Part shown: positions 38,081 to 40,933 of the stretch, piece by piece
Layout of the letters: every line of letters starts with the position of its first letter
Numbering within the stretch: position 1 is the stretch's first letter
Source of the DNA: Escherichia coli
GTDB lineage: Bacteria > Pseudomonadota > Gammaproteobacteria > Enterobacterales > Enterobacteriaceae
Reading direction: 5' to 3' (one strand)
DNA length: 64,000 bases
NCBI RefSeq assembly: GCF_030013595.1
Contig: NZ_CP122768.1
Notes under the pieces: generated by a model
What the model saw: only the letters and a program-made list of their open reading frames with translations
The model's database searches: none
Told to the model about the DNA's origin: nothing
Translations under genes and position numbers: made by a program

Positions 38081-39022
38081 TCACCCCCTGAATCCTGCCG
38101 GGATCTGGCTGTAGTCCACGTTGTCGTAACTGGCTTTGAAGTACGGGTCTTCGCGTTTTTCGGTGTACGTGCTGACGGACGGCGATAAGCGCAGGGAAAG
38201 CTCATCCCATTTTTCCCGCAGCTTCGACGGGCTGAGCACGTTACGGCACCAGAACGGATCGCGACTGACGCGGCTGTACATCTCGCAGATTTGTTTATGA
38301 GTACGACCATCCTGCACACACATCAGGCGAATTTCGTTTGCCCAGGCTGTCCAGTTCGGTTCTTTGGGACGAACCACCTCGCCGTCACATTCGGCGGCAT
38401 GCTCGTACAGGGCGATGATTTTTTTCCAGAGCCACTGTGCGCAGGTCAAATCATCCTGCGTCCCCCACTGGCGCTTTTTAGGGCTGAATACAACCGCATC
38501 AGGATGGCGAGTTAAAAAATCCTGTTCAGCCGTCTGCGTGTCCGGTTGCGAAGAGTCCGGACGAGAAGGTTTTTTATCTGACGGATCATGTTTTGATTTT
38601 ACTGACGGATCCCCGCCAGATTCTGACGGGTGAAAACCCGCTTTTTTGCCAGATTTCGACGCATCAAATTTTGACGGGTCAGATTTTGATGCGTCAGATT
38701 TTGACGGGTCAGAATCTGACAGTTGAGAAAATGCCGCTGCCTGAAGCTTCGCAACGTTAAGCTGATAAACATTCGACGCATTGCGGTTACCCTGGCGACG
38801 CGCCTTACGCGTTAACCAGCCTTCTGCTTCCAGCCGTGCGATAGCCGTTCTGACGGTACTCATCCCCGCGCCAATCTGGCGGGCAATGGTTTCAATCGAT
38901 GGCCAGCACACACCTTCGTCATTACTGAAATCAGCCAGGCGGGCCATAATTGCCACGCTGGATAATTTCATGCCTGACGCTGCGCAACCATCCCATACAT
39001 AGCCGGTTAATTTAGTGCTCAT
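38081..39022 (-). CDS. Replication initiator protein (O-like)
   Basis: 313 aa; N-terminal HTH; repeat-encoded linker (DPSKSDASKSDPSKFDASKS) spanning the iterons. Confidence 0.75.
   Translation of the reverse strand: MSTKLTGYVWDGCAASGMKLSSVAIMARLADFSNDEGVCWPSIETIARQIGAGMSTVRTAIARLEAEGWLTRKARRQGNRNASNVYQLNVAKLQAAAFSQLSDSDPSKSDASKSDPSKFDASKSGKKAGFHPSESGGDPSVKSKHDPSDKKPSRPDSSQPDTQTAEQDFLTRHPDAVVFSPKKRQWGTQDDLTCAQWLWKKIIALYEHAAECDGEVVRPKEPNWTAWANEIRLMCVQDGRTHKQICEMYSRVSRDPFWCRNVLSPSKLREKWDELSLRLSPSVSTYTEKREDPYFKASYDNVDYSQIPAGFRG
38575..38725. repeat. Replication origin iterons inside the initiator gene
   Basis: Tandem and inverted copies of ATTTTGACGGGTCAGA / ATTTTGATGCGTCAGA. Confidence 0.7.
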
Positions 39023-39031
39023 GACCGACCT

Positions 39032-39370
39032 CTATTTCCCTGAATTTACGACGAAACTGTTCGAGCGGACTGAAGCACTCATGCTCATAGCCTTCGCGGA
39101 GGTAGATAACCCGTTGTGTTTCCGGTTCCCAACGAATGACTCTGACGGGCACTCCGTAGTGATCTTTGAACCAGCGGTTAACTTGTCGCAAAGGACTGTC
39201 TCCTTCTGCCGGTTGAAATCCCCCACAGCCCACTCTGCAAAGCTGTGGGTTACAATTTCCCTGTCACCTGGTACATTCACTGCATAGCAATATTCCACCT
39301 TCGCTTTTCCACCCGGTACAGGAAGCGCAATCAGTTGCGAGCGACGGTAGTGTGTTGTTAAACTGTTCAT
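39032..39370 (-). CDS. YmfM-like protein
   Basis: 112-aa ORF between the YmfL-like gene and the replication gene; the C-terminal half is low-complexity and overlaps an alternative ORF. Confidence 0.45.
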
Positions 39371-39936
39371 GCGTTAGTTTCTCCACAACCAGAAGCAATC
39401 GACGCCACGACGCCCGGAGCTGCACACTCGCGGGCGTCATTACTTTCTGAAATGCAAAAGATTTTGTAGACCAGTGCTGCATGCTCCTGCAGCTTCGAAA
39501 TTGAGAGATACAGCTCGTCGTTAATTGCTGTCTTCTCATGCGGTTCCACTACACCGTCTTCGATTGCTGAACGAATCTGTTTTGAATAACTGCCGATCTG
39601 TTCAATGACTTCCAGCAGACGCTGGTTAATATCGGCGTTGTCCACATCCTCGACGTCAGGAAGCGACACAAAGACGCCATTTGCAGACTGCGCCACAGCA
39701 TCAGCAATGAAGTGAGTGCCACCAGCACGCTGTAAAACCATTGCCCATCCCAGCGGGAAAATCTGATCGCCATCTGCACGAAGGCGGTTGAATAAAGCGT
39801 TTTCTGTTACATCGAGCCAGTCAGCCGCTTCAGCGTAACCACCCGGCAACGCCGCGATAGTTTTTCTGACAGCTTTCACGTACCACTCAGGCTGTTTTTC
39901 TATTTTCCAGTGATGCTTACCCACGATTAGCCTCAT
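39367..39936 (-). CDS. YmfL-like early regulatory protein (cII position)
   Basis: 189-aa ORF immediately downstream of cro. Confidence 0.55.
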
Positions 39937-39967
39937 CGTTCTGTGGTTAAAAATTGAAAGTGTTCTG

Positions 39968-40168
39968 CTAATCTTTCGGATAGATATCCGGTCTTAAGTC
40001 AGATTTCGTAATTGCACCTGACGTGCATTGCTCAAGTTTTTTAGCCAGCACAAAACTGGCTTTTTTATAGCCATTGAAAACCAGCCGTAAGTAGCCAGGA
40101 GTTGAGCCAACTTTTCCGGCCAACTCGCCCTGCTGTTCTTTGGTTAAAGAGTCCCAATACGCTTTCAT
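39968..40168 (-). CDS. cro: Cro-like repressor
   Basis: 66 aa from ATG at 40168, divergent from cI across the operator region. Confidence 0.7.
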   Translation of the reverse strand: MKAYWDSLTKEQQGELAGKVGSTPGYLRLVFNGYKKASFVLAKKLEQCTSGAITKSDLRPDIYPKD

Positions 40169-40171
40169 ACA

Positions 40172-40243
40172 ATATGTACCTCCGGTGTACATATTACATG
40201 ATTGAAATGAACCTTCAAGACACTTGTACCTTAACGGTACAAG
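40172..40243. promoter_or_regulatory. OR operator region (pR / pRM) with two palindromic operators
   Basis: atatgtac-N7-gtacatat at 40172-40194 and cttgtacc-ttaac-ggtacaag at 40223-40243, between the divergent cro and cI starts. Confidence 0.7.
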
Positions 40244-40258
40244 GGTTTTAATTTCGTT

Positions 40259-40933
40259 ATGAAAACAATCCATGACATCCGGCGGTCTAACGCCCGAAAA
40301 CTGAGAGATGGTGTTGGAGGGAATTCTTCCTTTGCCACTATGATTGATCGCGAGCCAACCCAGACCAGCAGGTTTATGGGAGATGGTGCTACTAAAAATA
40401 TCGGTGACAGCATGGCACGACACATCGAAAAATGTTTCGACCTGCCTGTCGGATGGCTCGATCAAGAACACCAGACAACGAACATCACAAAAAAACCTGA
40501 TGTTTCAATCACTAATAAACAAATCACATTAGTCCCTGTCATATCATGGGTACAGGCCGGAGCATGGAAAGAAGTTGGATATTCTGAGGTTGATTTGAGC
40601 ACAGCAGAAACGTATCCCTGCCCTGTACCCTGTGGGGAAATGACTTATATCTTGCGGGTGATAGGTGATTCAATGATTGATGAGTACCGCCCGGGAGACA
40701 TGATTTTTGTCGATCCTGAAGTACCTGCCTGCCACGGTGACGACGTTATTGCATTGATGCACGATACAGGTGAAACCACCTTCAAAAGGTTGATAGAAGA
40801 TGGGACACAGCGTTATCTCAAAGCGTTAAACCCAAACTGGCCTGAGCCTTACATTAAGATCAACGGTAATTGCTCTATAATTGGAACTGTGATTTTCTCA
40901 GGAAAACCAAGAAGATACAAAATCAAAGCCTAA
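40259..40933 (+). CDS. cI: CI-like repressor (LexA-like S24 peptidase family, e14 YmfK type)
   Basis: 224 aa; N-terminal HTH and C-terminal S24 autopeptidase domain (VIGDSM Ser motif). Confidence 0.85.
   Translation: MKTIHDIRRSNARKLRDGVGGNSSFATMIDREPTQTSRFMGDGATKNIGDSMARHIEKCFDLPVGWLDQEHQTTNITKKPDVSITNKQITLVPVISWVQAGAWKEVGYSEVDLSTAETYPCPVPCGEMTYILRVIGDSMIDEYRPGDMIFVDPEVPACHGDDVIALMHDTGETTFKRLIEDGTQRYLKALNPNWPEPYIKINGNCSIIGTVIFSGKPRRYKIKA

Follow-up and report, generated by a model that had tools for sequence, protein, structure and literature searches.

The ymfM locus of an e14-like lambdoid prophage was analysed in a stretch of 64,000 nucleotides (nt) of Escherichia coli DNA (the window; assembly GCF_030013595.1, contig NZ_CP122768.1), and it very probably holds two genuine genes that overlap within the early-right operon of this prophage. 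The first-pass annotation, made from the letters alone, had described two overlapping open reading frames (ORFs), one for 112 and one for 73 residues (39012-39233, GTG start), and both were found again on the minus strand, the longer one at 39032-39370. The outer gene (39032..39370) is the ymfM-like ORF of 112 amino acids (aa), which begins with ATG, is present in the ORF list and corresponds to K-12 YmfM b1148 and phrog_1170. The second gene (39012..39191, minus strand) codes for a 59-aa protein of the DUF4222 (RgdR) family and has a TTG start; it is recognized by Pfam PF13973, by phrog_1343 and by the Prokaryotic Genome Annotation Pipeline (PGAP) of NCBI. With respect to the 112-aa ORF it lies in the +2 (equivalently -1) frame, the overlap of the two genes is 160 nt, and DUF4222 extends 20 nt beyond the ymfM stop. 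Of 5,426 complete E. coli genomes, 2,003 have the two-frame arrangement.

The alternative frame had been described as the more protein-like one, and this was borne out. Its match to Pfam DUF4222 covers profile positions 1-52 of 53 (E 3.2e-19; 68.7 bits, cut-off 27), and PGAP has the same protein as WP_001250269.1. The conserved core is present: in an alignment of 42 sequences (A3, with the window protein as the reference row) D10, G13, and V16 are invariant, and R6, V18, V28, I29, R32, G34, Y35, C39, P42, F46, and F50 are nearly invariant. The AlphaFold model is a small beta-barrel with a predicted local distance difference test score (pLDDT) of 84, and the fold is predicted to be Tudor/SH3/KOW-like. 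The GTG start at 39233 was not upheld. Both PGAP and phrog_1343 begin the protein at TTG 39191, and the 59-residue phrog_1343 matches the 73-aa ORF only from residue 16 on. This start, coded as ATG, GTG or TTG, lies exactly 179 nt past the ymfM start in seven lineages. A Shine-Dalgarno motif AAGGAG was read in the sequence 8 nt 5' of the TTG (39200..39205, minus strand), and in six other lineages this start position is preceded by GGAG or GAGG at a distance of 8-11 nt. The GTG (39231..39233, minus strand) has no Shine-Dalgarno motif. In several divergent lineages stops in the DUF4222 frame lie between its equivalent and the conserved start (TTG 39191-39189 in the window), and in L085 and L088 such a stop is found only 1-2 codons before the DUF4222 start. 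The GTG is therefore not the DUF4222 start and is probably unused. On this comparison the 73-aa version is unsupported, and the coding sequence is taken to be 39012-39191, 59 aa.

It is exceedingly improbable that only ymfM is real and the alternative ORF is an accidental open frame. Such a reading could draw on the K-12 RefSeq record, which lists YmfM alone, and on the TTG with which the alternative frame begins, but it has to face the full-profile Pfam match (E 3e-19), the conserved start with its Shine-Dalgarno motif, the confident fold prediction, the homology with RgdR and purifying selection, which within the overlap acts on the DUF4222 and not on the ymfM frame. Taken together, these comparisons identify the DUF4222 frame as a real protein-coding gene independent of ymfM.

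The ymfM frame is conserved in its first half. Comparison with ymfM of e14, proposed in the first-pass annotation, revealed 108 identical residues out of 112 (96%) between YmfM of the window and K-12 YmfM b1148, and phrog_1170 matches the ORF with E 6.3e-70 over residues 1-112 of 112. In homologues down to about 43% identity, an N-terminal domain of about 52-58 residues is conserved and the tails are variable; nevertheless, nearly all YmfM homologues are 112-117 aa long. The part of ymfM coding for this domain (about residues 1-58; 39197..39370, minus strand) was delimited by conservation, the ratio of nonsynonymous to synonymous proportions (pN/pS), polymorphism and profile search. The pN/pS, estimated by the Nei-Gojobori method over nine lineages, is 0.54 in the ymfM frame versus 1.0-1.1 in two control frames, and 18 synonymous and five nonsynonymous variants are found there among 52 closely related haplotypes. 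A profile search with the N-domain recovered 121 clusters at 50% identity. Their lengths are bimodal, with 47 clusters of 51-70 aa (stand-alone) and 32 clusters of 101-125 aa (extended).

These data bear on the opposite reading, in which only DUF4222 is real, ymfM is spurious and the 175 nt between ymfL and DUF4222 are non-coding. PGAP omits ymfM in the genomes listed, ymfM has no match to a Pfam or NCBIfam family, and its tail is without amino-acid constraint, all of which would agree with this reading. Against it, purifying selection on the first 58 codons is confined to the ymfM frame (0.54 versus about 1, and 18 synonymous versus five nonsynonymous variants), the N-domain family of 121 clusters includes stand-alone genes of 51-70 aa, and the ATGA coupling to ymfL is conserved; the reading is thus very unlikely. 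The ymfM N-domain is regarded, from these signs of selection and conservation, as real coding sequence. NCBIfam has a model for neither YmfM nor the DUF4222 protein, and PDB sequence searches with both family profiles gave no match. The AlphaFold model of YmfM is poor (pLDDT 50). Divergent DNA was gathered protein by protein and through a DUF4222 alignment headed by a Yersinia phage sequence. With the YmfM alignment, species-representative genomes yielded one locus (Entomohabitans), and a first scan of viral contigs gave near-identical copies only.

Selection, as judged from pN/pS and polymorphism, switches frame at the DUF4222 start, acting on the ymfM frame upstream and on the DUF4222 frame downstream. 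In the overlap, pN/pS over the nine lineages is 0.41 in the DUF4222 frame (pS 0.72) and 1.35 in the ymfM frame, and the third codon position of DUF4222 is the most variable one. All but one of the common overlap variants among the 52 haplotypes are silent in DUF4222 while altering YmfM; the single exceptional variant alters both proteins. Likewise, K-12 and the window differ in four residues of the YmfM tail, while their DUF4222 proteins are identical. The 112-aa frame is supported by homologues in one respect only: it is open in every homologue, but its tail is not conserved.

The tail (codons 60-112 and the stop, 39032..39191, minus strand, in the +1 frame of DUF4222) was delimited by pN/pS, pLDDT and the lack of stops. 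The 3' half of the 112-aa ORF had been called low-complexity. The contrast in composition is real but mild, with 21% Ser (11 of 53) and 51% Ser, Thr, Ala, Gly, and Asn in residues 60-112, compared with 10% of these five residues, nine aromatic and 21 charged residues among the 59 residues of the DUF4222 protein. Its entropy is, however, only mildly lower than that of residues 1-59 (3.76 versus 4.16 bits). YmfM residues 67-112 are predicted to be disordered, with pLDDT 32-39 and no secondary structure. DUF4222 is the older, sequence-constrained frame, and the YmfM tail is overprinted on it.

In relatives, the N-domain and DUF4222 are coded by separate genes, so the two modules are separable. 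Stand-alone N-domain genes (51-70 aa) always follow directly after the cII-like gene, and after them comes DUF4222, an antirepressor gene and then DUF4222, or another gene. The e14-type arrangement represents a merger through stop-codon loss. In a Yersinia-type clade, the stop of the N-domain gene forms an ATGA overlap with the DUF4222 start. Phages of this type (L102, about 1005-1368; L104-L113) have a cII-like gene, a short gap and a short N-domain gene that stands in the same relative frame as in e14, and ATGA overlaps of stop and start link the N-domain gene to DUF4222 and DUF4222 to the O gene. In L104-L113 a single TGA splits the N-domain gene from an otherwise open frame across DUF4222. 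The Yersinia-type layout may represent an intermediate stage of evolution.

The tail frame is kept open to a degree that chance hardly provides. Given the DUF4222 protein and random synonymous codons, the frame would be open with a chance of 0.03-0.15 per lineage, and empirically 13% of 52-codon stretches in the long ORFs of the window are open in that frame. The 97 DUF4222 loci were grouped into 35 clusters with less than 90% nucleotide identity to one another, and a cluster was classified as read-in when an in-frame upstream ORF beginning with MNSL was present (L150, which begins with MSSL, was counted as read-in). Each of the 19 read-in clusters stays open, without stops, as far as codon 49 or further. 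At-risk sites, i.e., Leu, Val or Ile codons before a codon starting with A, have T or C at the wobble position in 58 of 58 cases in the 19 read-in genes, while 31% of safe sites in the same genes have A or G (Fisher p 3e-7), as do 56% of the at-risk sites in seven closed DUF4222 genes. The wobble base at at-risk sites does turn over, with GTT used 23 times and GTC 22 times. The stop of ymfM itself arises from ATA, a rare but conserved Ile codon, and the GAG behind it. Selection on the tail would thus appear to act against stop codons only, fixing the end point of the ORF.

The following expression model is proposed. Translation of ymfM would start at the ATGA overlap with the ymfL stop and yield the N-domain of about 58 residues. 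No stop follows the N-domain in the window lineage, so ribosomes must read 53 more codons through DUF4222. Read-through would add a serine-rich, unconserved tail, predicted to be disordered, and DUF4222 would initiate independently at TTG 39191 from AAGGAG. Both products are expected to be made when the ymfK repressor is inactivated in the SOS response. By the same read-through, ribosomes could be delivered from ymfL and ymfM to the start of the replication gene, and internal initiation of DUF4222 could be modulated. Read-through probably matters via translation and not via the tail peptide.

Several points weigh against this interpretation of the locus. As a start codon TTG is weak, confidence in the AlphaFold model for the N-domain is low (pLDDT 52-71), and no paper mentioning ymfM was found in the ribosome-profiling literature. 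The frame is also open in nine of 16 DUF4222 clusters without read-in (seven of 16 are closed), a share above chance, and these nine include the Yersinia-type clade as the clearest case, where the N-domain gene stops at the DUF4222 ATG; part of the openness may therefore be inherited or reflect another constraint. The lineages are related, so joint probabilities overstate their independence. The YmfM tail could have a function depending on its composition, and the role in translational coupling is one that we infer.

Some of these points would suit a reading in which both genes are real, the tail is a tolerated accident of stop loss and its openness comes from shared ancestry. The tail sequence lacks constraint, N-domain genes are commonly found in the short stand-alone form, and the frame is open in some DUF4222 genes without read-in. 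Still, the 19 of 19 read-in clusters are open despite saturated synonymous sites (pS 0.72), the wobble base at all 58 at-risk sites swaps between T and C and is never A or G, and 32 of the clusters made at 50% identity keep the extended form. The tail frame is not read in the Yersinia-type clade, and there two of 10 shallow variants have already gained stops. A mere accident is hence unlikely, and an overlapping pair with a tail selected to stay open is preferred.

The first-pass annotation had also raised a frameshift, real or due to sequencing, and this did not hold, as about 2,000 complete genomes share the two-frame layout, and so do lineages whose protein identity falls to about 43%. A broader form of the idea is a single ancestral N-domain-DUF4222 gene broken by a frameshift, or two frames joined by programmed frameshifting or by slippage at a run of five G (G5; 39220..39224, minus strand), where sporadic database frameshift variants occur. 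Fused database variants of 102-119 aa do exist (P0031, P0053, P0059, and P0065), and the G5 run and a conserved hairpin lie close together. The fused variants are, however, rare, mostly from raw-read assemblies, and have differing junctions; the junctions of fused and broken variants are scattered, and two of them (P0063 and P0065) are at the G5 run. The G5 run is a minority allele, with GGT in 45 of 52 haplotypes, and so is not a programmed slippage site, and no X XXY YYZ heptamer was read in the ymfM frame upstream of the hairpin. In L085 and L088, the stop just upstream of the DUF4222 start in its frame excludes a fused or frameshift-joined product for those lineages. Furthermore, the modules are separate in relatives, in one case with an antirepressor gene between them. 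A frameshifted pseudogene or artefact was rejected, since the two-frame form predominates and the fused forms are rare with scattered junctions, and there is hardly any probability left for the frameshift explanation as a whole. A cluster of 'truncated YmfM' (P0044, 68 aa, 40 member sequences) ends in LSLIHI, which we take to be the translation of the Nextera/Tn5 mosaic-end adapter; P0044 would then presumably be raw-read adapter contamination and not a biological variant.

The hairpin, or inverted repeat, lies in the N-domain coding region, codons 41-50 (39222..39249, minus strand), and has 8-bp arms, CCCACAGC and GCUGUGGG, with a loop of 12 nt. It is kept across 31 distinct homologous segments of all N-domain subtypes. 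Its arms covary at one pair, which is either CG or UA: His CAC always occurs with Val GUG (22 segments) and Tyr UAC always with the rare Val codon GUA (nine segments), with no mismatch. Paired cells make up 84%, compared with 74% in shuffles, and none of 500 shuffles reached 84%; controls with the partner slid along gave 28-53%. The hairpin has no Rfam match, and it was rejected as an intrinsic terminator on either strand, since no U-run follows it. A second, small hairpin pairing the DUF4222 Shine-Dalgarno motif with its start codon was also rejected, being neither significant (z -1.6) nor obviously conserved.

The possibility of a mis-called gene, raised in the first-pass annotation, was confirmed insofar as the locus is called inconsistently. 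In K-12 MG1655 RefSeq, a 'cell division inhibitor YmfM' is annotated and DUF4222 is not, although the K-12 DNA encodes the identical 59-aa DUF4222 protein. The stretch in E. coli 2014C-4587 is identical, and PGAP annotates there the 59-aa 'DUF4222 domain-containing protein' (WP_001250269.1), equivalent to 39012-39191 of the window, and no ymfM. The same labelling was found in 28 of the 28 near-full-length matches listed, of 2,116 matching records, and no record with both genes annotated was found among the database records compared. The K-12 reference annotation is thus incomplete, as the DNA named ymfM encodes a second conserved protein; the NCBI pipeline keeps this second protein and drops ymfM.

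In 2020, following a decades-long search, YmfM of the cryptic prophage e14 was assigned as the SOS-inducible division inhibitor SfiC. Expression of ymfM DNA blocks Z-ring formation and causes filamentation, a result obtained only with DNA bearing both frames (Ansari et al., bioRxiv 10.1101/2020.11.19.390815). The evidence comes from the whole ORF in pBAD24, a library clone ymfL'-ymfM-ymfN' and whole-gene deletions. Every published ymfM/SfiC construct or deletion includes or removes both frames, so it cannot be told from this material which protein blocks division. SfiC is roughly equally likely to be the YmfM N-domain or the DUF4222 protein. More tentatively, and with doubt prevailing, SfiC might be the DUF4222 protein or need both products, with the ymfM frame as a translational bridge from the cII-like gene to the replication-gene start that gates internal DUF4222 initiation, and with the covarying N-domain hairpin as part of the control. 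The SfiC question is directly testable, since single bases can be changed so as to disrupt one frame and leave the protein of the other unaltered.

The DUF4222 protein is of the same family as RgdR, a prophage regulator that controls virulence and motility; an effect on the host is plausible. Among DUF4222 proteins only RgdR (ECs1581), from prophage CP-933C/Sp7 of enterohaemorrhagic E. coli O157:H7, has been characterised. It activates LEE1, acts as a repressor of motility and binds DNA irrespective of sequence, and its RGD tripeptide was reported to matter when it activates type III secretion (Flockhart et al. 2012, PMC3378721). RgdR matches Pfam DUF4222 with E 2e-23. In hhalign it matches the profile of the window family with 97.6% probability and 40% identity over 50 columns, and the window DUF4222 protein is considered, by these profile comparisons, to be its homologue. 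Both genes are located directly upstream of the replication gene of their own element. RgdR differs in its length of 99 aa with a basic C-terminal extension and in its P4-like element, and its gene is not overlapped, the +1 frame being full of stops. The RGD tripeptide is absent from the window DUF4222 protein: the hhalign alignment begins at D22 of RgdR, which pairs with R6, and R20-G21-D22 thus correspond to Q-V-N-R.

DUF4222 genes (L184, 8305-8604; L100-L103, L186, and L187), including rgdR, stand immediately upstream of a replication gene, which is O-like, a primase or a toprim gene, and stop and start usually overlap. This synteny hints at a replication-linked role for the DUF4222 family. 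Exceptions are the SfV-type phages and Hafnia phage yong2, with an Ash gene downstream. In yong2 (L099, 1184-1867) the annotated Ash coding sequence starts 17 nt upstream of the DUF4222 match. In SfV (orf37; L094, 1052-1888), ST64B (sb41; L095, 1058-2215), and a PGAP-annotated E. coli prophage (L185, 1831-2979), one long ORF is annotated from the stop of the cII-like gene, and it crosses an intact DUF4222 in its +1 frame and then continues into Pfam Phage_ASH (plus Rha). This long ORF is either one protein or an over-extended gene call. DUF4222 is an unannotated gene in SfV, ST64B, the E. coli prophage, and yong2.

Small genes that have their own ribosome-binding site, lie in another frame within a longer gene and share its mRNA are known from lambda Rz/Rz1 and from overprinting of the phiX174 type. 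Overprinting itself is well known in phages, and the ymfM locus is a new example of it. The inner gene in the window is likewise in the other frame, with its own start and Shine-Dalgarno motif, and the start is conserved in the seven lineages. Unlike those cases, DUF4222 is not fully nested, extending 20 nt past the ymfM stop, the overlapped part of the outer gene is without amino-acid constraint and shows stop avoidance only, and joint action of the two products is without support. Here a new frame appears to be selected only for staying open, and relatives keep both the separate and the merged state, so the locus would serve as a clean evolutionary example. Lambda Kil, Rac KilR, and Qin DicB are, as SfiC, small inhibitors of the FtsZ ring from prophage early operons that cause filamentation on expression; neither window product was found to resemble them in sequence or fold.

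On the minus strand, cro-like ymfT is followed by cII-like ymfL, ymfM, DUF4222, and the O-like replication gene, and a cI-like repressor gene is coded on the plus strand at 40259-40933. By its annotated neighbours ymfK, ymfT, and ymfL, the position of ymfM matches an e14-like immunity/replication module. The K-12 e14 ymfM/SfiC is the same gene in the same place between ymfL and the replication gene, and the literature treats that locus as a single gene. The ymfL gene (Phage_CP76; 39367..39936, minus strand) was recognized by Pfam and by NCBIfam phage_reg_YmfL, and PGAP places its start at 39924. Its stop and the ymfM start were read as an ATGA overlap (39367..39370, minus strand), and the same junction is found in relatives. 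No sigma-70-like promoter was found in a scan of 38900-40400 on both strands, so nothing in this region points to DUF4222 having its own promoter or to an oop-like antisense promoter. No Rfam match was obtained in 38800-40400.

The O-like replication initiator gene occupies 38081..39022 on the minus strand (phrog_391, E 4e-135; Pfam HTH_36). At its junction with ymfM (39020..39034, minus strand) are the ymfM TAG at 39034-39032, a GAGG Shine-Dalgarno motif at 39032-39029 and the ATG at 39022-39020. The 73-aa ORF had been said to end 10 nt before the replication gene; it is the 112-aa ORF that stops 9 nt 5' of the ATG, inside the Shine-Dalgarno region of that gene, and the DUF4222 stop at 39014-39012 overlaps the first 11 nt of the replication gene. 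Across seven lineages, the ymfM stop is located from 15 nt upstream to 11 nt downstream of the replication-gene start. No unusual RNA structure was detected at the junction (z +0.8). In the window lineage, ymfM and the replication gene share one reading frame with only the TAG and three codons between them, so read-through of the TAG would fuse them; the shared frame is not conserved, being different in L090 and L091. Within the O-like replication gene, about 4.3 tandem copies of a 15-nt unit (CAGATTTTGACGGGT) were found at 38650-38713, and these repeats resemble the iterons of a lambda-type origin inside its initiator gene.

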